DNA of 64,000 nt from an uncultured delta proteobacterium (GTDB taxonomy: Bacteria > Desulfobacterota > Binatia > Binatales > Binataceae): contig CAVQAG010000017.1 in NCBI GenBank assembly GCA_963710455.1, forward strand, positions 68,064 through 132,063. Direction: 5' to 3'. Below the pieces are notes generated by a model. That model ran no database searches, was not told where the DNA came from, and worked only from the letters and a program-made list of their open reading frames with translations. Of this stretch, positions 2,521 through 28,368 are shown piece after piece (the stretch's first letter is position 1; the number at the start of each line of letters is the position of its first letter). Made by a program: the position numbers and the translations under genes.

Positions 2521-4101
2521 ATGATCCAAGCAACGGCGATAAAGCTACGGGCGAGTTTAGCACCGCAGGAGTTTCAGCAATTGGGCAATCGCGATATCGA
2601 AGCGGCCCGCACCTATCACGCGGTGACCAAGCATTCGTACACCAGCGTGCGGACGGACGGGCATTTCCTGGACTGGCAGAACCGTCCGATGCCGTACAAG
2701 CTCTACCCTGAAGTGTCGGGACTCGCGTTGCCACGCGACTTGAGCCTCGCGCGAGTCCCGGTGCTAGAGGCGACTGCGGCTGGCGATCCGCCCGGCGGTG
2801 ACGCCGAACTTACGCTCGAGGCGCTCACGCGAATTCTGTTTTGCGCGGACGGGCTGACGCGACGCACCAGGATCGGCGGCCAGGACTATCACTTCCGTGC
2901 CGCCCCATCTGCGGGCGCGCTTTACCCGGTCGAAATTTATGCCGCGGTTGCCGAAATAGGCGAACTGGAGCGGGGGCTCTATCATTTTTCGCCCGCCGAC
3001 TTGCGCCTGCGCGGATTGCGCCGCGGGGACTGGCGCGGGCTGATAGCGCGAGCGGCGGCGGGACGTCCCTCACTACTTCGAGCGCGCGCAGTGATCGCGC
3101 TGAGCGCGATTTTCTGGCGCAGCACGTGGAAGTATCGCGCACGCGCCTATCGCTACTGCTTCTGGGACACCGGTACGATACTCGCCAACCTGCTCGCCGC
3201 CGCTGGGGCCGAGGGCCTGTCCACCGAACTGATCACTGCCTTTGCGGACCCAGAGATCGAGGCGCTGCTCGGGATCGATGGCGTACGCGAGGGCGCACTA
3301 TGCCTCGTCGCGCTCGGTGATGGTACCGACGCGCCCAGCGCCGAGCCGGAATTGCGGGCGCTCGATCTCGAGACGATTCCACTCTCGCGCGAGGAAGTCG
3401 GCTATCCGGACTTGGTGCGGATGCATCAGGCGTCCCGCTTGCTCAGTCCCGACGAAGTGGCCGCCCTGGTCGACGCGAGATTCGATTCGGCACCGCCGCC
3501 CACCTCGCCGGGGAGCGTTGTAAAGCCACCGTTCCTTGATACGAGCGCGGGGCTGGGTCTCGGCGAGACGATTTTAAGACGCGGATCGACGCGCGTTTTC
3601 GCGCACCAGGCGATCACGGCCGAGGAACTGGCGACGATCATGGCCGCCTCGAGCCGCCATCCGCGTGCCGACTTCCCGCCGCTCAGCGATGCCTATTTGA
3701 TCGTGAACGCGGTCGACGGGATTGAGCCGGGGGCATACTACTACCGGCGGCAAAGCGGCGAGTTTGAATTACTGAGAGCCGGCAATTTCCGCCGCGAGGC
3801 CGGTTATCTCTGTCTCGAGCAGCCCCTCGGTGCCGATTGCTCCGCACTCATCTGCTATATGGCCGACTTCGAGCGCGTTCTCGGCGCATTCGGCAATCGG
3901 GGGTACCGCGATGCTCACCTGGAGGCCGGATTACACGGCGGCCGCGCCTATCTGGCGGCCTATGCGTTGGGACGCGGAGCGACCGGGCTGACCTTTTATG
4001 ATGACGACACTGCGAAGTTTTTCGCACCGCACGCCGCCGGGAAGAGCCCGCTCCTGATGGTCGCAATCGGCGTGCCGCGCTCGTCCGACGACGAAACCTG
4101 A
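2521..4101 (+). CDS. SagB/ThcOx-family FMN dehydrogenase with two nitroreductase domains (true start may be ~2581)
   Basis: YHxxTKH, RAAPSAGALYP, WKYRARAYRY in domain 1; RRGSTR, RGYRDAHLEAG, GATGLTFYDD in domain 2. Confidence 0.85.
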   Translation: MIQATAIKLRASLAPQEFQQLGNRDIEAARTYHAVTKHSYTSVRTDGHFLDWQNRPMPYKLYPEVSGLALPRDLSLARVPVLEATAAGDPPGGDAELTLEALTRILFCADGLTRRTRIGGQDYHFRAAPSAGALYPVEIYAAVAEIGELERGLYHFSPADLRLRGLRRGDWRGLIARAAAGRPSLLRARAVIALSAIFWRSTWKYRARAYRYCFWDTGTILANLLAAAGAEGLSTELITAFADPEIEALLGIDGVREGALCLVALGDGTDAPSAEPELRALDLETIPLSREEVGYPDLVRMHQASRLLSPDEVAALVDARFDSAPPPTSPGSVVKPPFLDTSAGLGLGETILRRGSTRVFAHQAITAEELATIMAASSRHPRADFPPLSDAYLIVNAVDGIEPGAYYYRRQSGEFELLRAGNFRREAGYLCLEQPLGADCSALICYMADFERVLGAFGNRGYRDAHLEAGLHGGRAYLAAYALGRGATGLTFYDDDTAKFFAPHAAGKSPLLMVAIGVPRSSDDET

Positions 4102-4123
4102 CGCGGGCGGCTCGCCTGCAGCC

Positions 4124-4834
4124 CTAGCCTCGACTGCGCGATGCCCGCGGCGCGCGCTCCGTCGTCTGAGCCGTTACGCGAACAGCCGTCACGGCAACGG
4201 CCGCTTCGACCGCCGCTGTCATCATCTCCAAGGTCATGCTCGGCGCTTGGCGATGGCGCACCGCCTGGCGTGCGGCATACGGCAGATGGATGAACCCGGC
4301 GGGAATCTCTGGCCAGGCGCGTAACGTGTATAGGGTCGCGTACATCACCGAGTTGCACACGTATGCGCCTGCGCTGAGCGAGAGCGCTGCGGGGATTCCG
4401 CGGCGTTCGAGTGTGCGGAATATCGCGTGCAACGGAAGCCGCGCGAAAAGCGCATCTGCTCCGCCACGCACGACAGGCGTTCCGGCAAGACCGCCATCGC
4501 TCTCGCGCCGGGCTCGCCGCTCAACCAGGTTGATTGCGACCTTCTCCAGCGAAACCGCGGGTCGACCGCCCGCCTGCCCGAGGCCGAGCACGGCGCGCGG
4601 GCGAAATCGACGGATCGCCGCCGTAATCGCGCGCACCGCACGCGGCGTGCTGACCGGCAGCCTTACCGCTTTGACGACGAGCCCGCCGATCTCGCGCCCG
4701 TCGAGTTGCGCGGCGACCTCCCAGGACGGATTGCTACGCTCGCCGCCGAACGGCTCGAAACCGCTCAGCAGCAGCACGCCGCGCACCCGGTCGGCTTGAA
4801 CACGCTGCGCTTGCGAGCGCTTCACACGTTTCAT
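4124..4834 (-). CDS. pcp: Pyroglutamyl-peptidase I
   Basis: GFEPFGGERSNPS, GQAGGR, catalytic E (SLEKVAIN), C (AYVCN), H (FIHLP). ATG overlaps upstream stop (ATGA, 4831-4834). Confidence 0.9.
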   Translation of the reverse strand: MKRVKRSQAQRVQADRVRGVLLLSGFEPFGGERSNPSWEVAAQLDGREIGGLVVKAVRLPVSTPRAVRAITAAIRRFRPRAVLGLGQAGGRPAVSLEKVAINLVERRARRESDGGLAGTPVVRGGADALFARLPLHAIFRTLERRGIPAALSLSAGAYVCNSVMYATLYTLRAWPEIPAGFIHLPYAARQAVRHRQAPSMTLEMMTAAVEAAVAVTAVRVTAQTTERAPRASRSRG

Positions 4835-15655: not shown

Positions 15656-17257
15656 CTAATGCGCGGCGGAAGGGCCGCCTGAGCGTTGGCCTCTGCGCAA
15701 CAGTAGAAAGCCCGGGATCATCAGCGCCATCACGACCGCGAGGATCCGGTAGATGTCGTTGAAAGAAAGAATCGCGGCCTGCGCCTGGATCGCGTTGTAG
15801 ATAATCCCGAACCCCTGATGCTGCCCAGTTATCATCTGCGGCAGGTAATTGAAGGACGGCGCGCCCGGCATTCGCGGCGCGCGCTCGCTGAGCTTCCAGG
15901 CGTCGAAGATCGAGAGATGCTCGGCCAGGCGCGACTGATGAATCTGCTCATGGTCGACCAGCATCGTAGTCATGTAGGCGATTCCAATTGCGGCGCCCGT
16001 GTTGCGCATCATGTTGTAAAGGCTCGCGGCGTAGCCAATCTTCTCGCGTGCGACGACCGACAACGAACTCGCCGAAAGTGTCGGAAAGATCATTCCCATG
16101 CCGAGGCCCATCACAACGCTCGGGATGACGACCACCAACAGGCTGACGTCGAGGTCCCAGCCCGACATGGTCCAGAGGCCCATCGTCATCAGGATGAAGC
16201 CTGCGCCGACCAGCGGACGCGTGTCGAAACCGCGGCGCGCAATCTGCCCGACCACTACCATCGACAGCATCGTCGCAAGGCCGCGCGGCGCAAGCACCAG
16301 CCCCGCCTTCCACGCCGTGTAGCCCATGAACTCCTGCAGGAAAATCGGCATCAGCAGGCCAGTGCCATAAAGCACGGAACTCATTGCAACGATCAGGACC
16401 AATCCAACGCTGAATACTTTTATTTTGAGGATGCGCAGATCGAGAATCGGGTCGGCAATGCGTAGCTCGTTGATCGCGAGGATGATCAGCGCGGCGGCGC
16501 TCAACAAACTGGTCCATACCACCCAGGCCGAGGCGAACCAGTCGGCGCGCTGACCGCGGTCGAGCACGATTTGCATCGCGCCCAGCCCGACCACCAGGCA
16601 GGCGATGCCCACGTAGTCGACCTTGGCGCCGCGCGCACGATGCTGGCGCAGGAAGGGAGGATCGTGCACAAACGCCGAGACCATCAGGAATGCGATGATG
16701 CCGATGGGCACGTTGATGTAGAAATTCCAGCGCCAGTTCCAGTTGTCGGTGATCCAGCCGCCTAACGTCGGTCCCATGATCGGCGCGACCATCAGGCCGA
16801 CGCCCCACGTCGCCATCGCGAGCTGTTGCTCGGCGGGCGGAAAGGTCTCCATCAGGATGGCTTGCGACGAGGGCACCATCGCGGCGCCCGCCGCACCCTG
16901 GATCAGGCGAAAGACCACCATCTGGTCGAGCGAGCCGGCCGCGCCGCAGAGTGCCGAAGCGATCACGAAGACCGACACCGAGGTCATGAAGTAGCGCTTG
17001 CGGCCGAAGCGCGACGAGATCCAGCCGGTCATCGGGATCATGATGCCGTTGGCGACCAGGTAGCTGGTCAGCACCCACGCGATTTCGTCGACGCTGGCCG
17101 AGAAGCTGCCCTGCATGTGCGGCAGCGAGACGTTGACGATCGAAGTATCGAGCACTTCGAGCGTAGTGCCGAGCATCACGGCCAGCGCGACCAGCCACTT
17201 GTGCGAAGCCGTGGCAGGCTCGGCGTGCGCCGCCGTGATCGGTACTGCTGCTTCCAT
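15656..17257 (-). CDS. DHA2/EmrB-family MFS efflux permease (paralog 2)
   Basis: LDTSIVNVSLP, WVLTSYL, RFGRKR, GPTLGGWITDNWNWRWNFYINVP. Confidence 0.92.
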   Translation of the reverse strand: MEAAVPITAAHAEPATASHKWLVALAVMLGTTLEVLDTSIVNVSLPHMQGSFSASVDEIAWVLTSYLVANGIMIPMTGWISSRFGRKRYFMTSVSVFVIASALCGAAGSLDQMVVFRLIQGAAGAAMVPSSQAILMETFPPAEQQLAMATWGVGLMVAPIMGPTLGGWITDNWNWRWNFYINVPIGIIAFLMVSAFVHDPPFLRQHRARGAKVDYVGIACLVVGLGAMQIVLDRGQRADWFASAWVVWTSLLSAAALIILAINELRIADPILDLRILKIKVFSVGLVLIVAMSSVLYGTGLLMPIFLQEFMGYTAWKAGLVLAPRGLATMLSMVVVGQIARRGFDTRPLVGAGFILMTMGLWTMSGWDLDVSLLVVVIPSVVMGLGMGMIFPTLSASSLSVVAREKIGYAASLYNMMRNTGAAIGIAYMTTMLVDHEQIHQSRLAEHLSIFDAWKLSERAPRMPGAPSFNYLPQMITGQHQGFGIIYNAIQAQAAILSFNDIYRILAVVMALMIPGFLLLRRGQRSGGPSAAH

Positions 17258-17267
17258 CCAGCGGGCG

Positions 17268-18878
17268 TTATTCGGCGAGAGCGGTCATGACCTGGGCCTG
17301 CGGCTGGCGCCGGGCGCGCCTAAGCCCGATAAACGCGGGCACCATCACGAGCATCAACACGGCCATGATCCGGTACAGGTCGTCGAAGGACAAAATTGCG
17401 GCTTGCGCCGTCACCATCTCGTACACTCTGCCAAGGCCCTGCTTCTGACCCGTCACCAACTGTCCCATGAAATGAAACGGCGGGCTGCCCGGCATGAGCG
17501 AGCCCCGCTGGCTGAGGCGCCACGCGTCGAACACCGATAGATGCTCGACCAGCCTCGACTGGTGAACCTGCTCATAGTTTACCAGCATGTTGGTGAGATA
17601 CGAGATGCCCATCGCCGCCCCGGTGTTGCGCATCAGATTGAACAGGCTTGCCGCATCGCCCATTCGGTCGCGTGGGATGTTCGCAAATCCCACCGCCGCG
17701 AGTACCGGGAACAGCATTCCCAGACCCGCGCCGAGCACGAGGCTGTCGATCACGACCACGCGCATGCTCACGTCGAGGCTCCATTGCGCCATCCACCAGA
17801 GCCCGATCGCGGAGAGCAGGAACCCCAGCCCGACCATCGGGCGCGTATCGACCCTCAGCCGCGCCACCTGTCCCACCGCGAACATCGAAAACATTGCGGC
17901 CGCCGCACGCGGCACCATCATCAGTCCCGCTCGCCACGCCGTGTAGCCCATCAGCTCCTGCAGAAAAATCGGCATCAGCAAGCCCGTGCCCCACAGCGTC
18001 GCGCTCAACACCACCATCAAGAGCACGGTCAGCGCGAAGACCCGGTCCTTGAGGATCCGCAGATCGATAATCGGCTGCGGAAACAGCAGCTCGTTGACCA
18101 CCAGGGTCAGAATCGCGAGCGCTGCGCACACGGTCGCCGACACCACCCAGGTCGAAGCAAACCAGTCGGCGCGTTGGCCACGATCGAGTACGATTTGCGT
18201 CAATCCCAGTCCGATGACGAGGCACGCTATGCCGAGATAATCGACGCGTCCTCCTTTCGAGCGCCGCTGGCGCAAGTACGGCGGGTCATGCACGAACGCG
18301 TAGACCATCGCGATGGCAACGATTCCGATCGGGATGTTGATATAGAAGTTCCAACGCCAGTTCCAATTGTCCGTAATCCAGCCACCAAGCGTAGGTCCGA
18401 GGATCGGCGCGATCATCAGGCCCACGCCCCAGGTCGCCATCGCCATCTGCTGCTCTTCGGGCGCAAACGTCTCCATCAGGATCGCTTGCGAGGACGGGAG
18501 CATCGCCGCACCTGCCGCACCCTGCGCGAGCCTGAATAGAACCATCTGCCCCAGCGATTGCGCCGCGCCGCATGCCGCCGAGGCGGCGACGAATGTCGCT
18601 ACCGAAGTCAGGAAGTAGCGCTTGCGGCCGAAGCGCGCGGAGATCCAGCCGGTCATCGGGATCATGATGCCGTTGGCGACCAGGTAGCTGGTGACCACCC
18701 AGGCGATTTCATCCACGCTGGCCGAGAAGCTGCCCTGCATGTGTGGCAGCGAGACGTTGACGATCGAAGTATCGAGCACCTCGAGCACGGTGCCCAACAT
18801 CACCGCGAGCGCTATCAGCCACTTGTGCGCGGCGACAGGGCGCTCATCGGCGAGAGGAATCGCGCTTGCGCTGGCCAC
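17268..18878 (-). CDS. DHA2/EmrB-family MFS efflux permease (paralog 1)
   Basis: Same motif set as the neighbour; 10 bp gap between the two genes. Confidence 0.92.
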   Translation of the reverse strand: MASASAIPLADERPVAAHKWLIALAVMLGTVLEVLDTSIVNVSLPHMQGSFSASVDEIAWVVTSYLVANGIMIPMTGWISARFGRKRYFLTSVATFVAASAACGAAQSLGQMVLFRLAQGAAGAAMLPSSQAILMETFAPEEQQMAMATWGVGLMIAPILGPTLGGWITDNWNWRWNFYINIPIGIVAIAMVYAFVHDPPYLRQRRSKGGRVDYLGIACLVIGLGLTQIVLDRGQRADWFASTWVVSATVCAALAILTLVVNELLFPQPIIDLRILKDRVFALTVLLMVVLSATLWGTGLLMPIFLQELMGYTAWRAGLMMVPRAAAAMFSMFAVGQVARLRVDTRPMVGLGFLLSAIGLWWMAQWSLDVSMRVVVIDSLVLGAGLGMLFPVLAAVGFANIPRDRMGDAASLFNLMRNTGAAMGISYLTNMLVNYEQVHQSRLVEHLSVFDAWRLSQRGSLMPGSPPFHFMGQLVTGQKQGLGRVYEMVTAQAAILSFDDLYRIMAVLMLVMVPAFIGLRRARRQPQAQVMTALAE

Positions 18879-19147
18879 GCGAGACTACCCGGCCGTGAGC
18901 CGCTTCCAGCTGGCTCGGCCACGTGCAAGCGAGATCGCGACGGTGCCGGTCTTCCCCATCGACGGCCCTGTCCCTCCCCTGAGTCCGTGGTCCCAGGATG
19001 CCCAACTATGCTCCAGCAATCGGGACTTGAAAAGGCAGCAGTGGGAACGGTGTGCTCTCCACAACCTCGCCCGCCACGCCGCCAAGCTGTGAAGTGATCA
19101 GGCGATGCGATGCTGACAACGTCGCGCGCGCAAAGTACGCTTTCATT

Positions 19148-20719
19148 ATGCGTCTGGCCGCGATCGATGTCGGTTCGAACTCGGTCCACATGGTGATCGC
19201 AGACGTACGGCGCGACGGGCACTTCGAGGTCATCGATCGGGTCAAGGAGATGGTGCGGCTCGGCCGCAACGCGTTCACCAGCGGTAAGCTGGCGCGCGAG
19301 CCGATGGAACTGGCGGTGCGTGCGCTCAAGAATTTCGCGCGCCTAGCCAAGGTGCGCCGGGTCGATCGGATTCGCGCAGTCGCTACCAGCGCTGTGCGCG
19401 AGGCGCAAAACCGCGAAACCTTCATCGCGCGCATCCGTCGCGAGACCAGCCTCAAGGTCGAAATCATCTCGGGGGCCGAAGAGGCCCAGTTCATTTTCAG
19501 CGCCGCCCGCCATGCGCTCGGGCTGGAGGGCGGCCCCTACCTGTTGATCGACGTCGGCGGCGGCAGCGTAGAGCTGGTGCTGGTGCGCGACGGCCAGGCG
19601 CTTTGGATGGAGAGTCTGCCGCTGGGCGTCGCGCGGCTGACCGAACGGTTTCTCACCTCCGATCCGCCCAACACGGCCGAAGTGCGAAGACTCGAAGACC
19701 ATCTGCACCGAAAGCTCGATGCGCTCCTGCGCAAGGCGCGGCGGGCCGAGGTGGTGCAAGCGATTGGCACCTCGGGAACTATAAACGCCCTGGTCGCGAT
19801 GGCGCGGGTGGCGCGCGACGGCGAGCAGGATAGGCTTCACGGCCTGAGCATCCCCGCAACCGACGTCACCTGGCTGCGCAACCGGTTGCTCAAGTTATCC
19901 GCCGACGAGCGCGCCGAACTTCCGGGCGCGGACCCCAAGCGGGCCGATTTGATGCCGGCCGCTGCGGTGCTGGCGGACTTCGTGCTGGAGCACGCAGGGG
20001 CGCCGGAGCTGGTCGCCTGCACCTGGGCGCTCCGCGAGGGCATCCTGCTAAGCATGGTCAAGGCGGGTGCGCGGGGACGCGGCACGATCGAGGCGCGCCG
20101 GCGTTCGGTAAGCGCGCTGGCGCGGCGATTCGGAGCGCTCAACGGACATGGGCCGCAGGTGGCGCGCCTGGCGCTAAAGATTTTCGACGCGGCCGCGCCG
20201 GTGCTCAAAGCTGGCTCGCAGGCGCGCGAGCTGCTCGAACACGCCGCGCTGCTCCACGACATCGGCCGCGTGATCGACCACGATCGTCACAACCGTCACA
20301 CCTACTATCTGGTCAAGAACGCCGAGCTATTGGGCTTCGATCCGCTCGAGATCGAGATCATCGCCCAGGGCGCACGCGGCCATCGCAAACCCTCGGCCCG
20401 GCTCGATTCGCCGGAGTTCCGCGCGCTGAGCCCGGCAAAACGCCATCTGGTTCGCTCCATCGCCGCGGTTCTGCGGATGGCCGATGCGCTGGACCGAAGT
20501 CACTTCAGTGTGGTTAAAGATATACGCATCCGACGTTCACCAGACCGATTCACCATCACAGTCGATGCTGCCGGTGGACAGGCAGACCTTGAGCTATGGA
20601 CTTGCGAGAGAAGATCGGACCTGCTGTCGAGGTTGCTGAGCCGTTCAGTAACGGTGAGGCGCCGGGCACCGCGGGTAACGGCGCGTCCGAAGCGGGCGGC
20701 GGCACGGGGCGGGCGCTAA
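19148..20719 (+). CDS. ppx: Ppx/GppA exopolyphosphatase with C-terminal HD domain
   Basis: AAIDVGSNS, ATSAVREAQN, ISGAEEA, DVGGGSVE, LREGIL, LLHDIG, LRMADALD. Confidence 0.92.
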   Translation: MRLAAIDVGSNSVHMVIADVRRDGHFEVIDRVKEMVRLGRNAFTSGKLAREPMELAVRALKNFARLAKVRRVDRIRAVATSAVREAQNRETFIARIRRETSLKVEIISGAEEAQFIFSAARHALGLEGGPYLLIDVGGGSVELVLVRDGQALWMESLPLGVARLTERFLTSDPPNTAEVRRLEDHLHRKLDALLRKARRAEVVQAIGTSGTINALVAMARVARDGEQDRLHGLSIPATDVTWLRNRLLKLSADERAELPGADPKRADLMPAAAVLADFVLEHAGAPELVACTWALREGILLSMVKAGARGRGTIEARRRSVSALARRFGALNGHGPQVARLALKIFDAAAPVLKAGSQARELLEHAALLHDIGRVIDHDRHNRHTYYLVKNAELLGFDPLEIEIIAQGARGHRKPSARLDSPEFRALSPAKRHLVRSIAAVLRMADALDRSHFSVVKDIRIRRSPDRFTITVDAAGGQADLELWTCERRSDLLSRLLSRSVTVRRRAPRVTARPKRAAARGGR

Positions 20720-20736
20720 ACGGCCATCGCCGGACA

Positions 20737-21444
20737 GTGCTCAGCTCGCCCCATCCTTACCCGGGCCGGCTCATCGCCGTCGAGGGGATCGACGGGTCGG
20801 GCAAATCCACCCAGGTGAAACTGCTCGAGCGATGGCTGCGCGCGCGCGGCTATCCGGTGCACTTCACCGAGTGGAACTCGTCGCGGCTGGTGCGTAACTC
20901 GATGCGCCGCGGCAAGCGGCGCGACCTGCTCACGCCGAGCACCTTCAGCCTGCTGCACGCGGTCGACTTTGCCGACCGCTTCATCTACCAGATCCTGCCG
21001 CCCCTGCGCGCCGGGATGATCGTGCTGGCCGACCGTTACGTTTATACCGCTTTTGCGCGCGACGTCGCCCGCGGGGTACATCCCGACTGGGTGCGCGGCG
21101 TCTATCGCTTCGCGCCGCGTCCTGACCTCACTTTCTTTTTCCGCGTACCCATCGAAGTCTCGCTCGAGCGGCTACTGGCTGGCCGGGCCAAGCTCAAGTA
21201 TTACGAGGCCGGGATGGACCTGGGCCTGTCGACTGATCTGGTCGAGAGTTTTCGTCTGTTCCAGGGACGCGTGCTGGAGATTTATGACCAGCTTGCCGAG
21301 GAATTCGATCTCAGGGTCATCGACGCCAGCCATGACATCGCTGGCCAGCAAAAAGTCGTCCGCCGAATGACCGGCGAAATCCTGCGCGAGTACGATCGCC
21401 AGCGCGCCCGCAACCATCATGGCAACTCAGCCGCCGCACGCTAA
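20737..21444 (+). CDS. Thymidylate-kinase-like P-loop protein 1 (start uncertain)
   Basis: P-loop EGIDGSGKST, ADRYVYTAFARD, PRPDL. Confidence 0.85.
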   Translation: MLSSPHPYPGRLIAVEGIDGSGKSTQVKLLERWLRARGYPVHFTEWNSSRLVRNSMRRGKRRDLLTPSTFSLLHAVDFADRFIYQILPPLRAGMIVLADRYVYTAFARDVARGVHPDWVRGVYRFAPRPDLTFFFRVPIEVSLERLLAGRAKLKYYEAGMDLGLSTDLVESFRLFQGRVLEIYDQLAEEFDLRVIDASHDIAGQQKVVRRMTGEILREYDRQRARNHHGNSAAAR

Positions 21445-22201
21445 ACGCTGGCACGGCCACGGCCTGCCCTATCTCGATGAGAAGCCGCTGCCCGGCCATC
21501 TAATCGTGATCGAGGGTACCGACGGCGTAGGACGCTCGACCCAGGTCGAACTTTTGCGCGGCTGGCTCGAGTTAGAGGGCTACGCGGTCAGCAACACCGG
21601 ATGGACGCGCTCGCCGTTGCTCTCCGCAACTATCGCCGAGGCCAAGGCCGGCCATCAGCTCACCCCCATAACCTTCAGCCTGCTCTACGCCGCCGATTTT
21701 GCCGACCGCCTGGAACACGAAATCCTGCCCGCTCTGCAGGCCGGCTTCGTGGTAATTGCCGACCGGTACATGTACACCGCCTTTGCGCGCAACGCGGTAA
21801 TGGGAGCCGATCCGGAGTGGACCCACGAAGTGTTCGGGATGGCGTTGGTGCCGGACCTCGTCTTGTATCTCGAGATCGACGTGGACACACTGGTGCCGCG
21901 CGTGGTGCGCGGCAAAGGGATGGATTACTGGGAGTCCGGGATGCATCTGGCGCTCTCCAGCGATATCTTCGACTCCTTCCAGAACTACCAGCAGCGCATC
22001 ATCGCCGAATACAATCGCCTCGCGCATGATTTCGGCTTCATCACCATCGACGCCCGCGAATCGATCAACAAGATCCAGGCCGAGCTCCGCGCACACGTCG
22101 CGGACTACCTGCGGCGCGCGCAGGGCAGCATCCTGCCGCAAGTTGAAAGTCCGTCGTCACTGTCACCGGCCCAACCTGCGGGTCACCCGCGCAAGGTATA
22201 G
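21419..22201 (+). CDS. Thymidylate-kinase-like P-loop protein 2 (Walker A Lys->Arg)
   Basis: EGTDGVGRST, ADRYMYTAFAR, VPDL; overlaps protein 1 by 26 bp. Confidence 0.85.
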   Translation: MATQPPHAKRWHGHGLPYLDEKPLPGHLIVIEGTDGVGRSTQVELLRGWLELEGYAVSNTGWTRSPLLSATIAEAKAGHQLTPITFSLLYAADFADRLEHEILPALQAGFVVIADRYMYTAFARNAVMGADPEWTHEVFGMALVPDLVLYLEIDVDTLVPRVVRGKGMDYWESGMHLALSSDIFDSFQNYQQRIIAEYNRLAHDFGFITIDARESINKIQAELRAHVADYLRRAQGSILPQVESPSSLSPAQPAGHPRKV

Positions 22202-22227
22202 GCCGAACGGGTAGGCCAAATTAAACG

Positions 22228-23211
22228 ATGACTCCCGCAAGTCCGGCGCGTTCGCAGGCCGCCATAGCATCGCCGTCCGATCCCGCGGTCCAGGCGGCAG
22301 CGGTCGCGATAGCCGTTCAACTACGCGCGATGACTGCCGAGCACGACAAGGCCATGACCGGCGACGCCGAAGCGATCCATCGGCTTCGCGTGGCAACGCG
22401 GCGCCTGCGCGCCGCCCTACGGATGCTGCGCGAGGTTGCTCCGGACGCCGAAGCGGAAGGCGCGGCAGACGAGTTGGGATGGCTCTGCGGCGCGATTGGC
22501 GCGGTGCGCGATCTCGACGTGCTCGCCCAGTTGCTCCAGGATCGTGCAACGCGTCTGGAGTCCGGCTTCATTCGCGCGCTTGCCCCGCTCTCCGACACTA
22601 TTCGCGGTCAGCGCGCGATCGAGCAGGAGCGCCTGGTGGCGGCGCTCGATTCGGAGCGTTACGGCGGTCTGGTCCAGCGCTTGGGCGCGATCGCGCCCAA
22701 GCCGGCGGCGGATAGCGCCACGCTCGGCGCGGTGGCGGCGCGGTTGGTCCGCCCCCAGTTGCGCGCGATGCTGCGTGCGGGCGCGGGACTCGACGAGGCG
22801 GCGCCGCCCGAAACCTTGCATCGCCTGCGCGTGCGCGTGAAGAAGCTGCGCTACGCTATCGAACTGTTGCGCATGGTCGGCGGCAAGCCTGCGCGCAAGA
22901 TCCTGCGCCGTCTCGAGCGCGTGCAGGAGCGCGTCGGCATGTATCATGACGCGGTGACCGCGGCCGCGTGGCTGCGCGGATGGGCCGCCGAATCGCGCGA
23001 CGCGTCGGCTTTGATGGCGGCCGGCGCGCTGATTCACTCCTTCGAGCGTCGCATCCGCCGCTTGCGTACCCGCAGTCTCAAGGCCTGGCGTCGCGCGGAT
23101 ATGGACCAACTCGCCCGTGCAGTGCTCCAGCAACTCAACCGCGCCGCCGCTCAGGCGCGGCGCGCGGCGAGGCCGCCGCTCGTCCTCGTCCCGGTAGCCC
23201 GCGCCTCATGA
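22228..23211 (+). CDS. CHAD-domain (polyphosphate-binding) protein
   Basis: IHRLRVATRRLR, GAVRDLDV, LHRLRVRVKKLRY, QERVGMYHD. Confidence 0.92.
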   Translation: MTPASPARSQAAIASPSDPAVQAAAVAIAVQLRAMTAEHDKAMTGDAEAIHRLRVATRRLRAALRMLREVAPDAEAEGAADELGWLCGAIGAVRDLDVLAQLLQDRATRLESGFIRALAPLSDTIRGQRAIEQERLVAALDSERYGGLVQRLGAIAPKPAADSATLGAVAARLVRPQLRAMLRAGAGLDEAAPPETLHRLRVRVKKLRYAIELLRMVGGKPARKILRRLERVQERVGMYHDAVTAAAWLRGWAAESRDASALMAAGALIHSFERRIRRLRTRSLKAWRRADMDQLARAVLQQLNRAAAQARRAARPPLVLVPVARAS

Positions 23212-23711
23212 CGCTGTACATTTTGCGTCATGGAGTAGCCGAGAACGAACCGCCGCCGGGCGGCGACGACGGCGCACGCCGGCTGACCGCCCGGGGTCGC
23301 GAGAAAGTGCGCGCCGCGGCGGCCGGGATGCGCGCCTTGGGGCTCAAGCTCGACGCCATTCTCGCCAGCCCCTTGCCGCGAGCCGCTGAAACCGCGGATC
23401 TGGTCGCCGCCGTTTACGCCGCGGGCCTGGTCCCCGAGGTCTTTGCCGCGCTATCGACCGGGGTCACGCCCGCCGATACGGTAGCGGCGCTCAAACCTTA
23501 TGAACGTCATGACCATCTGATGGTCGTTGGACACGAACCGGGACTGAGCGGGCTCGCTTCATTGCTCCTGACCGGTTCGGCCAACAGCGTGAGCTTCGAA
23601 TTCAAGAAATCGGGAATGATCGCGCTCGAATTGCACGACGGAATCGAGCGTGGCGGCGCGCAACTGCTGTGGATGCTGACGTCGCGCCAGTTGCGCCGCC
23701 TGGGCAAGTGA
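23208..23711 (+). CDS. sixA: Phosphohistidine phosphatase SixA
   Basis: LYILRHG, RRLT, SPLPRAAETA, VGHEP; ATGA overlap with the CHAD stop. Confidence 0.88.
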   Translation: MTLYILRHGVAENEPPPGGDDGARRLTARGREKVRAAAAGMRALGLKLDAILASPLPRAAETADLVAAVYAAGLVPEVFAALSTGVTPADTVAALKPYERHDHLMVVGHEPGLSGLASLLLTGSANSVSFEFKKSGMIALELHDGIERGGAQLLWMLTSRQLRRLGK

Positions 23712-23762
23712 CGGCGCCGCATTTCGTTATATTACTGGCTATTCGGTTAAACCGCCTCTTCA

Positions 23763-23951
23763 GCCATCCTGCGCGAAAGCTGCCGGAGTCGAAGGATCTC
23801 GCGCGGCCTCCGCGCCTAAATGCACAACTTTGGAATTTTGGCGATTAGTCAGATCGATCCATGTCGCGCACGGATTGCTCGCGGACTCGCTTCGCTCAGG
23901 ACGACCGAAGAGAAAAGCTTCGCCGAAGAAAGGGATTCGCTTCGCTGAGGA
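23763..23951. repeat. Degenerate REP-like inverted-repeat element between convergent genes
   Basis: GCCATCCTGCGCGAA...GAAGGATCTC left arm and TTCGCTCAGGACGAC right arm (ends 23905). TCGCTTCGCT(C/G)AGGA occurs twice (~23887 and ~23937). Confidence 0.45.
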
Positions 23952-23991
23952 AAATAAGCTCCGGGGCGCAATTGATTACTTAGTCGTTACG

Positions 23992-26824
23992 CTATTTGAC
24001 ATAGAACGCTTCGGCCGCGGGGCGATAGGCTCGCGCCAGCCACGTCGGGCGCCGAAGGCCGCCTGGCCCCGGCGCCGCGCGCGTCATCTCGAGCCATCGG
24101 CGATAGACCTCGTGCGATTTGCGCGTATCGACAAAGATGTCGCCGTAACGATCCTGCGGTCCCGCCGTGCTGACCGTCACTTTCTGATGCCAGCAGTGCT
24201 GGCCGCTTATCGGGTCGGGCTGCACCGGAAAAATCAGGTTCTGATGCACGCCGGCGTCCTGCCACCAGATACGGCCCGAGTCCGGATCGGCGCTCTCAAA
24301 CGGTTGCACGCCATGGACCTGCCGCATCATCCAGGTCCCCTCTTTTTTGTGGCTCAACTCGACCAGGCCGCTCGCCCATCGCTCGCCTCCGCTATCTTCC
24401 TTCAGGCGCCAGCGCCCCAGATGATGTGAACAGGCGATCACTCCCGGCCGGATCGATTCGGTTACCCATACCTTGTCGACGAAGTAGCCGATCTCGGTCG
24501 CGATCTTCAGCAGGCCGCCGGTGTCGACGCCGAAACGGCGCGCGTCTTCGGGATGCAGCCACAGCGGGTTGCGATTGGATATTTCATATAGCCATTTGGC
24601 GTTGCCCGATCGAGTATGTACCAGGGTAGGAAGGCGAAAAGTCGGCAGCAGCAGCATCTCGCCGCGCTCCCGATCGATCTTGCTGAAGTGAACCTGGCTC
24701 CTGATATAAGCCGGAACTGAGTACTCGGGCCAATTCCAGTCTTTGAGCGTTTTCGAATAGAACTCGAGCTTGCGCGACGGCGTGGGAAAGCCGGCACAGG
24801 CTCGGCCGTCGATCTCGACCCCAATAGCGGTCCCGCGCTGAGTGATGACCTTGCTCTTAGGATCGATCGCCGCCCCCTTGAGGCCCTCCGCCGAGATTGT
24901 TTTTTCATGAACCCGGTAGGAGCCTTCCTCGATCAGGAAGGCTCCATACTTGCGCATGTACGCCAGCGGGGTGAGCCCTTCCTTCGCCGCCGCCGCGGGC
25001 AGGCCAGGCACGCTGTTCTCGAAAATCCATCGGTAGAAATCTTCGACCGTCAGCTTTCCTCCCGCTCGGTATGGCGACTCGAAGTACTTGCGGATGCCGA
25101 GTGCGCCGTCGGGATCGATTCTCCATGACAGCTCGATCCAGAACTCGTCCTCCTCCCACACCTCGCCGAGTCCGGCCTCGCGATGGGCCTCGTAGGTGAA
25201 CTCGAAGCGCTTGCCCGCGCGCTCCAGCGCGACGCGCGCGACCGGCTGGCGAAAACCGATCCAACGCGCGGCGTGCGTCTCCTGGCTCAGCAGGTCATGG
25301 CGTTCCGGCCCGTGCCCCATCGGCAGGACATAGTCGGCGAATTGCGCGGTCTCGCTCCAGATTGGCGTAAGACACGCGTGTCGCTCGATTTTACTTTCGT
25401 CGGTGAGCGCCTCGATCCAGCTCATCCCGTCGGGATTGGTCCACACCGGATTATAGACGCGGGTGAAGTACGCGCTTAGCTTGCCGCGGCCCTCTTTCAG
25501 AAAATGCGGAAGCAGGAAGCTCATTTCGAAAAACGCGAGGGGGAACTCGAGCGGCCACGTAAGTTTGTTCCAGACCTGGGGCGGCGGCGGCATCATCGGC
25601 GGCGCGGGCACGAACTTGTTAGCCGAGTTGGGCGCGGTGCCGCCAGGCGTGTCGACCGCACCCATCAGGACCACCAGCAGCTCGAGCGCACGCGCCACCT
25701 GCCATCCGCCCAGGTTACCCGCAGCGGCGTTGCGCCATACGTGAGTCGCGAGCGCCGAGCCGGCGCGCCCAATCTCGCGCGCGACCTCGACTATTACGCT
25801 GGCCGACGCGCCCGACTCGCGCTCGGCGAACTCGGGCGTGTATTGGGCGTAGATCTCCCCGAGAACATCCAGAAACGTGTCGAAGGTCTGCGCACGCCCG
25901 GGATGCTCTTCACGCAGGAACTCCTCCCAGTTGACCCAACGGCGCAGGAATTCGCGGTCATACAACTGCTCGCGCAGAATCACGTGGCACATCGCCAGAA
26001 GCACCGCTGCCTCGCTGCCGGGCCACGTCGAGAGCCACCAATCAGCCTTGGTCGCGGTGTTCGAAAGCCGCGTATCGATCACGCAGACCCGGGCTCCGCG
26101 TTGCTTGGCCTCGATAATCCGCTGTGCGTGCGGATTGAAATAGTGGCCGGCCTCGAGGTGCGAGCTGAGCAGGAGAATGAAGCGGGCGTTGGCGTGGTCG
26201 GGCGACGGCCGATCGGCGCCGTGCCAGAACGCGTAACCGGTGCGCGCACCCGCCGAGCACACATTGGTATGGCTGTTGTGCCCATCGATTCCCCAGGCGT
26301 GCAGGGTGCGCTGATTATAAATCAGTTCATGGCCGGGGCGGCCGACATGGTAGAGAATCTCGTTGTGGCGGCCTTCGACCAGCGCACGGCGAATTCGCCC
26401 GGCGAGATCATCGAGCGCGTCATCCCACGTAACACGCTCCCACTTGCCTTCGCCGCGCCGTCCCACCCGCCTCATCGGGTAGAGGATGCGCTCGGGATCG
26501 GTGACCTGGTTGATCGTAGCGGGACCCTTGGCGCAGTTGCGGCCAGCGGCTCCCCGGATGCATCGGGTTGCCTTCGAACTTGCGGATCGTGAAGTCGCGC
26601 TTATCGACGTATCCAAGCAGGCCGCATCCGGCCTCGCAGTTGAAGCAAACGGTGGGAACCAGCGTGTAGCGCTTCTCGACCTTGCGCGGCCACGCGGCTG
26701 GGTCGTACTCGACCCAGTCGTCCCATCGGTCGGCCGGCGGAAACGCGCTCAGCCCACCTGCGGGCGCCTCGAGTTCCGTCGCTGCCGGATTGAGCGGCCG
26801 CATCTGTTCCTTGGTTGGAGCCAT
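23992..26824 (-). pseudogene. Molybdopterin (bis-MGD) oxidoreductase catalytic subunit, split by a 1-nt insertion at ~26545 (pseudogene or sequencing error)
   Basis: Frame 1 has CFNCEAGC...EGNPMHPGSR; frame 2 continues GRNCAKGP...RILYPM...WDDA, HTNVCS, HTRS, LHPEDA. Removing one base restores PGSRGRNCAKG. Confidence 0.85.
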
Positions 26825-26832
26825 CGTTGCAT

Positions 26833-28368
26833 CTAACTCAGCGGGACCGCCTGGCCAGCCTCAATCCAGAGGTTCTCGAAGGTCCATAGGCCGACCAGTG
26901 CGAGAATCGCCGCGCTGGCTGCGGTCGCGCCACCAGCGCCTGTGCGCAGCGCCGCGCCCAGCAGAAGCAGCGGCACGATCGTGCCGAGCAAAACCACTCC
27001 GATCCAGAAGCGAAAGCTTAGCTCGCCGCGCGAGATGAGATCGGCGGCGCGCCCGAAATCCTCGCTTGTCGCGGGCAACGTCAGCTCGATAAGAATCATC
27101 GCCAGGCCGACTGTCAGCGCTGCGAGCAGAATGCGCGCGGTGGCGACAATTGTGGAGGCCCCGGCGCCGAAAACTATCGCGGCGATAATCAATGACGCCG
27201 CGCCGCCGATCAGCGCCTGCACCAGCAGATGCCAGATGAAGACCGGGCTTTGCCAAAGATCGCGCGCCTTGGCCTGCGCGAACAGAAAAGCGGAGTAGCA
27301 TGCGGAGCCAACTGCGAAGACCGCAGTCGCGGTAACCAATGCGACTGGAATTGAACTGATGAAGAAACCGCAGGCCAGCCAAGCCGTCGCAAGCGCGCCG
27401 TAAATCATTAGGATGTACGTGCCCCAGACCAGCCACGAACGAAAGTTGGGCCTGGTGATTAGATAGTAGAAACGCCACGGCTGTTTAAGGTCGGCGATCA
27501 GCAGGACGACGGTGATGCCGAGAAAGAATAGCGCCAGGATTGGACCGACGACTCCCAGCAGCGTCCCATCTTCGGCCCCGCGCCCCACTCCGAGCAGCAC
27601 CGCCGCAACCAGCACCACTCCCGCCGCGATCGATTTGGTCCACAGATATGCGGCCGGGATCGCGCCCCATGGCGCCGCATGCGGGACGTCGTAGACGATG
27701 CGCGCCGAGCCGGGCGCCGCGTCGGCGGCGTCGTCGCCGGTCGCAGGGCGCCGGCCGTCGAGAGGATTGTAATCGGCCCACATCGAGCTATGCTCCGGCC
27801 GCATCATCGAGGGGTGCAGCAGGTCGCCTTCAATACCGACGTAAAAGAGCTTGGGCTGCGTGCCCTTGTGCGCCTTGCGCGTGGCGACTTTTCCAGCCGC
27901 GACGATTCGGCTGACGCGGCTTTGCGAGTCGTCGAGGTCGCCGGTCATGATCGCCTGGGTCGGACATACGACAACGCAGGCCGGTTCGAGATTGGCCTCG
28001 ACACGATGCGCGCAGAAGTTGCATTTGGCGGCGGTGCTGGTAGCCGGGTCGATGTAAAGCGCGTCGTATGGACAGGCCTGCATGCAGGACTTGCATCCGA
28101 TGCATCGGCTGTTATCGAAATCGACGATGCCGTTGTCGCGTTTGAACAGCGCGCTGGTCGGGCAGATCTCAAGGCACGGCGCCTGGTCGCAATGATTGCA
28201 GCGCATCACGCCGAAATGGCGGCTGGTATTGGGGAAAGAACCTTTCTCGATGTACTTGACCCAGGTGCGGAAGACGCCCACCGGGACCTTGTGCTCGTCC
28301 TTGCAGGCAACCGTGCACGCATGGCATCCGATGCATCGGTCCTGATCGATCACGAAGCCGTAACGCAC
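26833..28368 (-). CDS. 4x[4Fe-4S] electron-transfer subunit fused to an NrfD/PsrC-type membrane anchor
   Basis: CIGCHACTVAC, CNHCDQAPCLEICP, CIGCKSCMQACP, KCNFC...PACVVVCP, followed by a multi-TM domain with DLKQPWRF and AGQ terminus. Confidence 0.9.
   Translation of the reverse strand: MRYGFVIDQDRCIGCHACTVACKDEHKVPVGVFRTWVKYIEKGSFPNTSRHFGVMRCNHCDQAPCLEICPTSALFKRDNGIVDFDNSRCIGCKSCMQACPYDALYIDPATSTAAKCNFCAHRVEANLEPACVVVCPTQAIMTGDLDDSQSRVSRIVAAGKVATRKAHKGTQPKLFYVGIEGDLLHPSMMRPEHSSMWADYNPLDGRRPATGDDAADAAPGSARIVYDVPHAAPWGAIPAAYLWTKSIAAGVVLVAAVLLGVGRGAEDGTLLGVVGPILALFFLGITVVLLIADLKQPWRFYYLITRPNFRSWLVWGTYILMIYGALATAWLACGFFISSIPVALVTATAVFAVGSACYSAFLFAQAKARDLWQSPVFIWHLLVQALIGGAASLIIAAIVFGAGASTIVATARILLAALTVGLAMILIELTLPATSEDFGRAADLISRGELSFRFWIGVVLLGTIVPLLLLGAALRTGAGGATAASAAILALVGLWTFENLWIEAGQAVPLS

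Follow-up and report, generated by a model that had tools for sequence, protein, structure and literature searches.

A probable family-3 polyphosphate kinase operon with a tandem pair of thymidylate-kinase-fold proteins in a bacterium of the family Binataceae

Introduction

The closest described counterpart of the genes considered here is the family-3 polyphosphate kinase (PPK3) of the archaeon Sulfolobus acidocaldarius (SaPPK3; Hofmann et al., J Biol Chem 2026, PMC12995831; preprint 10.1101/2024.08.28.610084), which is encoded in an operon with the gene order sixA-ppx-saci_2019-saci_2020-CHAD. In the present work we analysed a stretch of 64,000 nucleotides (hereafter, the window) from an uncultured soil bacterium of the family Binataceae (assembly GCA_963710455.1, contig CAVQAG010000017.1, positions 68,064 to 132,063 of the forward strand). 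It contains five co-oriented genes, ppx-tmkA-tmkB-CHAD-sixA, and two of these, adjacent to each other, encode the thymidylate-kinase-fold proteins TmkA and TmkB. By analogy with the archaeal system this locus is probably a bacterial PPK3 operon, in which TmkA would be the catalytic subunit and TmkB a non-catalytic activator.

In S. acidocaldarius both proteins of the pair were formerly annotated as dTMP kinases. Saci_2019 is the catalytic subunit (cPPK3), while Saci_2020 (rPPK3) is inactive alone and boosts the activity within an alpha2beta2 complex (Hofmann et al., 2026). The enzyme is a reversible polyphosphate:ADP/ATP phosphotransferase, favouring the direction in which ADP and polyphosphate yield ATP, and accepts GDP too, with reduced activity. 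The dTMP kinase activity is absent from Saci_2019 and Saci_2020, this role belonging to saci_0893. Replacement of the DRX arginine was given as the reason for the inactivity of rPPK3s; positively charged cleft residues are conserved in cPPK3 and not in rPPK3, whereas the ATP/ADP-binding residues are conserved across the PPK3 family. The protein STK_15430 (ST1543, PDB 5h70) of Sulfurisphaera tokodaii was named a cPPK3 homologue. As to the other polyphosphate kinases, PPK1 prefers synthesis, and the classes of PPK2 differ in their acceptor (introduction of the same paper).

According to Hofmann et al. (2026), PPK3 has a patchy distribution, most of its carriers lack PPK1 and PPK2, and bacterial PPK3 was already predicted there from phylogeny and gene neighbourhoods. 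The abstract speaks of "a few bacteria", and the supplementary table marks one Phycisphaerae and two Planctomycetia genomes, among others, as PPK3 carriers; the part of this table accessible to us holds no "Binat" entry. The system as such is already published, with its bacterial members predicted, and the first-pass annotation of the window, made from the sequence and knowing of no biochemical assignment for such pairs, is outdated in this respect by the preprint of 2024 and the journal paper of 2026. What is worth keeping from the present analysis is the condition of the active site in the second subunit (an Arg for the Walker-A Lys, DRY intact), the breadth of the system among bacteria and its coexistence with PPK1 and PPK2.

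Results

The putative catalytic-type subunit TmkA

The gene tmkA (20596-21444, plus strand) encodes a putative catalytic-type PPK3 subunit, a homologue of cPPK3 with the Walker-A motif GSGKST, the DRY motif and a basic stretch, RRGKRR. The solved protein closest to it is ST1543 (2plr/5h70, the latter being the ADP-bound structure) with 198 bits and an E-value of 1.9e-57, compared with 63.6 bits for the best canonical thymidylate kinase (Tmk). The Pfam profile Thymidylate_kin matches both proteins of the pair (4.5e-22 for TmkA and 4.2e-21 for TmkB), while against TIGR00041, the dTMP kinase equivalog model, TmkA scores 79.7 bits, which is under the cut-off of 83.25. The PPK2 profile (PF03976) is matched by neither of them at E <= 0.01. 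TmkA has EWNSS and AFARD in alignment with the canonical stretches HEPGGT and IAYQG, and the E-P-G-G-T and A-Y-Q stretches of canonical Tmks, which we take to be dTMP-binding, are replaced in both TmkA and TmkB.

In the columns of a MAFFT alignment of A-type orthologues the Walker-A lysine is present in 81/81 rows and so is the D-R of the DRX motif, the third residue being Tyr in 80 rows and Phe in one. Taken over the segment that stretches from Walker A as far as the DFADR helix, the median net charge is +7 for the 81 A-type rows and -1 for 79 B-type rows. This segment charge serves as a proxy for the cleft residues of the published work, whose list is given in its Fig. S16, and the contrast between the two types fits the basic cleft that was reported as conserved in cPPK3 and not in rPPK3 (Hofmann et al., 2026). 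Clade membership (see below), the intact Walker-A Lys and DRX Arg, and the basic segment, its charge being estimated by proxy, provide grounds to regard TmkA, at the level of sequence, as a subunit of the cPPK3 type.

The putative partner subunit TmkB with an altered P-loop

The gene tmkB (21419-22201, plus strand) encodes a paralogue, 43% identical to TmkA, which occupies the position of the regulatory subunit (rPPK3). Its P-loop reads GVGRST, where Arg takes the place of the Walker-A Lys, the DRY motif is kept, and the N-terminal motif G-x-G-L-P-Y (residues 13-18) varies hardly or not at all among B-type proteins and is absent from TmkA. All the motifs quoted in the first-pass annotation are present, namely GIDGSGKST and YYEAGMDL in TmkA, GTDGVGRST and YWESGMHL in TmkB (YYEAGMDL and YWESGMHL both conforming to Y(Y/W)E(A/S)GM(D/H)L), and DRY in both.

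Like TmkA, this protein has ST1543 as its best solved relative (149.8 bits with 2plr, vs 49.5 bits with the best canonical Tmk), while its score against TIGR00041, 86.5 bits, is just over the cut-off of 83.25. A structure search with the predicted model of TmkB (pLDDT 84.7, pTM 0.81) retrieved chains of ST1543 as all of its top 8 matches (E-values from 3e-18 to 2e-16; target-normalised TM-scores 0.86-0.90), canonical Tmks following from rank 9 (E-value 8e-12).

The Walker-A arginine was found in 78/79 B-type orthologues (MAFFT columns), the remaining row being frameshifted, and the combination of this arginine with an intact DRY is near-unchanged across every phylum sampled. By its position in the operon and by its clade TmkB is, as judged from sequence, the counterpart of rPPK3 in a different active-site state, and does not strictly match the published description. 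As for the tandem pairs of Margulisbacteria (L091-L096, at about 3360-4650 in each), their second gene has the Walker-A Lys, with NKY replacing DRY, which points to decay of the kind described for rPPK3 (Hofmann et al., 2026); no matches to ppx, CHAD or sixA were found within 4 kb of these pairs. One more protein, P0184, has EQY at the DRY position.

Broken B-type genes were also encountered: the gene has an in-frame stop at the P-loop region in L065 (5796-6461) and is split into two frames in L036, L041 and L043. These may be sequencing errors of metagenome-assembled genomes or decaying copies. An apparent TmkB-CHAD fusion in L086 was discarded as an artefact, the extended open reading frame (ORF) having crossed an internal stop.

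Conservation of the gene pair and its neighbourhood

Relatives of TmkA number at least 456 in species-representative genomes, and the best 80 of them, belonging to Binatia, Nitrospirota, Planctomycetota, Bacteroidota, Verrucomicrobiota, Armatimonadota and other taxa, made up the first set of loci. In 79/80 loci the A-type gene is followed, on its own strand and at a distance of no more than 200 nt, by a B-type gene; in the sole miss (L088) the sequence stops 187 nt past the A gene. Such an arrangement is far beyond chance. Neighbouring genes were counted by tblastn with the window's own proteins (E <= 1e-5) within 1.5 kb of the pair, these counts being lower bounds, with many loci ending at contig ends. 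Near the pair, ppx was found in 68 loci, sixA in 55 and CHAD in 47; the complete set of five genes occurs in 39/80 loci, and 76/80 have one or more of ppx, sixA and CHAD.

The second set comprised 80 loci among at least 318 relatives retrieved with a different B-type subclade, and is mostly from Verrucomicrobiota. Two Tmk-like genes stand together in 79/80 of them, in the order Lys-type, then Arg-type in 76; the exceptions are two loci scored "?-R", one scored "K-?" and one with a single R-type gene. The numbers of relatives, at least 456 and at least 318 in species-representative genomes, can be compared with the "few bacteria" of the published abstract (Hofmann et al., 2026).

Phylogeny and search for archaeal relatives

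In a tree of 92 rows a branch with SH-aLRT support of 100 separates canonical Tmks from the PPK3-like proteins, TmkA being placed inside a group of 31 rows, all with the Walker-A Lys. This tree held two rows (L099 and L100) that had been labelled canonical Tmk in error, not being Tmk-like by eye and standing on a 5.3 branch. They were removed, together with 14 more rows, from a second tree (76 rows, mixture model), in which canonical Tmks again lie outside the PPK3-like proteins. Here the A group consists of 24 rows, all with Lys, and is free of B rows, be they from the loci or from the fusion P0122 described below, while TmkB belongs to a B clade of 32 rows with SH-aLRT support of 98.

The trees took in neither Saci_2019 nor Saci_2020 nor any other archaeal rPPK3. 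A degenerate DNA pattern derived from a peptide of PDB 2plr had no matches in the genome contigs searched. Three candidates for an archaeal rPPK3 were rejected as bacterial or lacking close kin: P0202 is from Margulisbacteria, P0170 yielded canonical Tmks only, and the subclade of P0160 is mostly from Verrucomicrobiota. Sequences P0170, P0215 and P0196 are not from Sulfolobales, because their scores with 2plr are below that of TmkA. A look-up in an atlas returned thymidylate-kinase clusters only, one of them with Nitrososphaerota as its commonest phylum, which is to be taken as a lead and not as a test.

Predicted heterodimer and natural fusions

The complex of TmkA with TmkB was predicted in three runs with custom alignments of 24 rows each, alongside three controls. 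The predicted complex has an ipSAE of 0.77, compared with 0.44 for the best control, and the three runs have at least 94% of contacts in common, with a partner pLDDT of at least 80. That mark was attained by 58/80 solved complexes and 2/110 mismatched pairs, counts that are only roughly valid for custom alignments. The predicted interface is formed by the helices following the P-loop in both chains and by residues 13-18 of TmkB, that is, by its G-x-G-L-P-Y motif. The prediction supports binding of TmkA to TmkB as a heterodimer only, an alpha2beta2 assembly being outside its reach.

Natural fusions provide independent support for the association of the two types. Two Tmk domains reside in one chain in P0122, P0179 and P0225. 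The first of these proteins (Alicyclobacillaceae, 460 aa) consists of an A-type domain followed by a B-type one, and its model has a pTM of 0.82 despite a disordered linker, a value that has no control. In P0179 and P0225 the Walker-A Lys is present in neither domain, one of them being degenerate and the other having GRST. Three longer proteins (P0140, P0152 and P0159; 650-696 aa) combine two Tmk domains with a Ppx-type domain III/HD module.

In addition, PPK3-like Tmk domains fused to phosphate-related modules were observed in P0188, P0194, P0195, P0204, P0260, P0266, P0199, P0226, P0251 and P0253. P0188, from the transcriptome of the eukaryote Ancoracysta twista, has the architecture SPX + Tmk + DUF2252. 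The set of Tmk fusions also includes long MFS + Tmk + APH/DUF2252 proteins, giant inorganic pyrophosphatase + Tmk proteins and NUDIX + Tmk. A fragment of 507 aa labelled Elusimicrobiota (P0200) is related to the MFS + Tmk + APH/DUF2252 proteins and is devoid of the MFS part.

Other kinases in the genome and in Binataceae

The genome, the completeness of which is 88.55%, has three matches to PF02223: TmkA, TmkB and a canonical tmk. The latter (contig C12:25503-26075, minus strand; locus L001:1459-2097) adjoins a holB-like gene and scores 161.4 bits with Pfam and 176.9 bits with TIGR00041, vs 79.7 and 86.5 bits with TIGR00041 for TmkA and TmkB. The genome also encodes a full PPK1 (756 aa; 763.7 bits with TIGR03705) and three intact PPK2s, the PPK2 matches being on contigs C5, C9 and C11 and not on the window's contig, C17. 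A fourth PPK2 gene (C9:270897-271576; L007-L009) is broken over three frames, its middle piece containing stop codons, and is either a pseudogene or a result of an assembly error. The description of the pair as standing "instead of a PPK", given in the first-pass annotation, holds for the locus and fails genome-wide, and the suggestion that the pair fills an otherwise empty ppk role has to be abandoned in view of PPK1 and the three intact PPK2 genes.

Our survey of the family covered 41 genomes of Binataceae, including the source genome and the unpublished G017. The PPK3 pair is present in 27 of them, PPK1 in 35 and PPK2 in 27 (without G017: 26, 34 and 26 of 40). Among the 27 PPK3 carriers, PPK1 was found in 24 and PPK2 in 17 (without G017: 23 and 16 of 26); two carriers (G011 and G028) have neither PPK1 nor PPK2. 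In four genomes (G019, G020, G023 and G029) PPK1 is located about 11-22 kb from the PPK3 pair on the same contig, while in the source genome they are on different contigs. Since PPK1 and PPK2 are present, PPK3 is an addition to the other kinases and no substitute for them. In the phylum outside Binataceae the pair was found in 2/80 sampled genomes, that is, its distribution is patchy, in line with the published one (Hofmann et al., 2026).

Layout of the operon and its surroundings

The arrangement of five co-oriented, abutting or overlapping genes, noticed in the first-pass annotation, was reproduced in full, all ORFs being found in their places on the plus strand, with their families confirmed. 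The gene ppx (19148-20719, plus strand) encodes an exopolyphosphatase with Ppx/GppA N-terminal domains and domain III/HD (Ppx-GppA PF02541, 1.7e-65; PF21447, 2.9e-25; HD, 2.1e-07); its score with TIGR03706 (exo_poly_only), 288.1 bits, is under the cut-off of 307. The ORF opens with GTG at 19052, and the NCBIfam alignment starts at residue 2 counted from ATG 19148; the latter start was preferred, because the profile alignment fits it. The CHAD-domain gene (22228-23211, plus strand) encodes a protein matching PF05235 over residues 27-250 (6.8e-50). The last gene, sixA (23208-23711, plus strand), encodes a phosphohistidine phosphatase of the SixA type, with 78.3 bits for TIGR00249, above the cut-off of 74.5, and 6.8e-09 for His_Phos_1.

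The overlap of ppx and tmkA amounts to 124 nt, provided that tmkA starts at ATG 20596. This codon is conserved in the relatives L016 and L044, both without a later start codon; an alternative start in the window is GTG 20737, and distant tmkA orthologues start 10-13 codons ahead of the P-loop strand. At its N-terminus TmkA is extended by some 55 residues of low complexity. The genes tmkA and tmkB overlap by 26 nt, the gap between tmkB and the CHAD gene is also 26 nt, and the CHAD gene and sixA overlap by 4 nt. Apart from the pair, there is no nucleotide-metabolism gene in the operon. No Rfam family matches were found within 18000-24500, and neither the promoter/terminator scan nor the repeat scan of the region upstream of ppx revealed anything exceeding chance.

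The flanks of the operon are unrelated to phosphate. Upstream, and divergent from ppx, there are two tandem MFS transporter genes, visibly alike (15656-17257 and 17268-18878, both on the minus strand). Downstream, a molybdopterin oxidoreductase gene (23992-26616, minus strand) is preceded, with respect to its direction, by a single ORF (26833-28368, minus strand) that combines a four-cluster ferredoxin (Fer4_11) with a NrfD-type membrane anchor.

Discussion

Homology, clade membership, conservation of the operon, active-site states and the predicted A-B contact, all of them established in the present analysis, make us fairly confident that the locus is a PPK3 operon with TmkA as its catalytic subunit and TmkB as a non-catalytic activator, the analogy being with the archaeal enzyme. 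The proposal of the first-pass annotation that the pair may be a heteromeric polyphosphate-dependent kinase or synthase, and not a housekeeping dTMP kinase, gains support, by the same analogy, from the biochemistry of the homologous Saci_2019/Saci_2020 pair (Hofmann et al., 2026). The checks that it suggested point in the same direction: the homologues are linked to ppx, CHAD or sixA, the genome possesses a separate canonical tmk, the pair lies outside canonical dTMP kinases beyond the SH-aLRT 100 branch, and the heterodimer prediction exceeded its controls.

As to the mechanism, the activity, direction and stoichiometry, as well as the roles of CHAD and SixA, are transferred from the Sulfolobus work and from general knowledge of these families. 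TmkA would transfer the terminal phosphate in either direction between ATP/ADP and the polyphosphate chain end, making use of its intact Walker-A Lys, DRY Arg and basic polyphosphate-binding surface. TmkB would bind TmkA and make it more active, in the way Saci_2020 acts on Saci_2019. Polyphosphate would be trimmed by Ppx, and SixA would be a co-expressed phosphatase. CHAD proteins bind polyphosphate granules, and the CHAD protein of this operon would sit on the polymer. The main direction is most likely the formation of ATP from polyphosphate and ADP, serving as an energy buffer, because PPK1 is present for synthesis. The occurrence of PPK3 beside PPK1 in Binataceae fits such a division of labour, synthesis vs ATP recovery, and not a replacement.

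Several observations weigh against this interpretation. DRY is kept in 79/79 B-type orthologues, TmkB included, so that the replacement of the DRX arginine, reported for rPPK3s, is not observed; the published reason for the inactivity of rPPK3 is therefore inapplicable here, and TmkB may not be inert. The orthology of TmkB and Saci_2020 is suggested by position and clade in a sequence comparison that included no archaeal rPPK3, and the branch of the A clade in the 76-row tree has weak support (21). Tmk homodimers have been solved, and the high score of the predicted complex may reflect likeness to them. The genome has PPK1 and PPK2, as do most of the Binataceae sampled, unlike most of the published carriers of PPK3, and the physiological role may differ. 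Finally, among the literature matches listed, only the paper of Hofmann et al. (2026) and its preprint deal with the family, and no biochemical work on a bacterial PPK3 was found.

The state of the second subunit deserves separate consideration. We tentatively suggest, while considering it rather doubtful, that bacterial PPK3 has as its second subunit not an inert scaffold, as in Sulfolobus, but a distinct "Arg-P-loop" module, in which Arg stands for Lys and DRY is intact. By binding a nucleotide or polyphosphate, this module could adjust the enzyme's direction or rate to the energy charge. If this is true, the widespread bacterial PPK3 is mechanistically unlike the one form studied. The conserved Lys-to-Arg, DRY-intact state of this subunit offers mutagenesis a specific target at low cost.

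An alternative that we find unlikely is that the enzyme is the same PPK3 and the Arg-P-loop with DRY of TmkB forms a working nucleotide/polyphosphate site, which would sense the energy charge allosterically or serve a second phosphotransfer, e.g., from NMP to NDP. This site is indeed strongly constrained: in the 79 B-type orthologues the share of the majority residue is 0.99 for the Walker-A Arg and 1.00 for each of D, R and Y, compared with a mean of 0.68, and in the broader B clade (n=32) the DRX Arg is kept in 32/32, with 28 rows having Arg, 3 Cys and 1 His at the Walker-A position. The fusions P0179 and P0225, which have a GRST domain while lacking the Walker-A Lys in both domains, argue for it as well. 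However, replacement of the Walker-A Lys by Arg usually abolishes phosphotransfer in P-loop enzymes, the basic polyphosphate surface is lost in B-type proteins (net charge -1), and the conservation may equally serve folding or the subunit interface. Moreover, Saci_2020 alone is inactive (Hofmann et al., 2026).

It is quite improbable that the pair is a polyphosphate-linked kinase whose main acceptor is not ADP, but GDP, an NMP or a deoxynucleotide. SaPPK3 does use GDP, at reduced activity, and the PPK2 classes vary in acceptor (Hofmann et al., 2026), while the A clade of bacteria stands apart from those archaeal enzymes that were assayed; on the other hand, the structure nearest to TmkA is the ADP-bound one of ST1543 (5h70), the residues binding ATP/ADP are conserved in the family (Hofmann et al., 2026), and the operon is devoid of an extra nucleotide-metabolism gene. 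That TmkA and TmkB are paralogous dTMP (dNMP) kinases, whether ordinary or specialised, and merely neighbour polyphosphate genes is hardly credible: matches to the Pfam and NCBIfam thymidylate kinase profiles, with TmkB over the TIGR00041 cut-off, and the "dTMP kinase" labels of homologues in public sources are outweighed by the canonical tmk elsewhere in the genome, by replacement of the presumably dTMP-binding stretches in both proteins, by the linkage to ppx, sixA or CHAD in 76/80 loci and by the lack of dTMP kinase activity in Saci_2019 and Saci_2020 (Hofmann et al., 2026).

With the PPK3 interpretation preferred, a system published from an archaeon appears as a common operon of soil bacteria. 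The score of TmkB above the dTMP kinase cut-off, together with the "dTMP kinase" labels of the homologues, looks like a systematic misannotation, and counts of polyphosphate kinases that rest on such labels would be too low in Binataceae, Verrucomicrobiota, Nitrospirota and other groups.

Among the known systems, the canonical Tmk of the same genome resembles the pair in fold, P-loop, DRY and lid, but lies beyond the SH-aLRT 100 branch and adjoins a holB-like gene, not polyphosphate genes. Two-domain PPK2s of class II, such as PA3455 of P. aeruginosa, are similar to the window's pair, as discussed for PPK3 by Hofmann et al. (2026), in combining an active P-loop module with a degenerate paralogous module for oligomerisation and, like PPK3, use polyphosphate to phosphorylate nucleotides; they differ in belonging to the PPK2 family (PF03976) and not to the dTMPK clade, and in having their modules fused and not encoded by separate genes. 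ST1543 (STK_15430) of S. tokodaii (2plr, 4nzy, 4rzx and 5h70), the best solved relative of both window proteins, was deposited as a dTMP kinase; it is archaeal, was solved without a partner subunit and, unlike TmkB, has the Walker-A Lys.

As for SaPPK3, its operon begins with sixA, which is the last gene here, and the DRX Arg, replaced in rPPK3s, is kept in TmkB as part of DRY, the Walker-A Lys being changed to Arg instead. The identity of cPPK3 and rPPK3 subunits is 22-38% (10.1101/2024.08.28.610084), vs 43% for the window's pair; the host is a bacterium with PPK1 and PPK2, and its TmkA bears the N-terminal extension of about 55 residues. At the same time, both systems share adjacent thymidylate-kinase-fold paralogues with ppx, sixA and CHAD, a separate canonical tmk elsewhere in the genome, and the division of the pair into a catalytic type, in which Walker A and DRX are intact and the surface is basic, and a second type without this basic surface.

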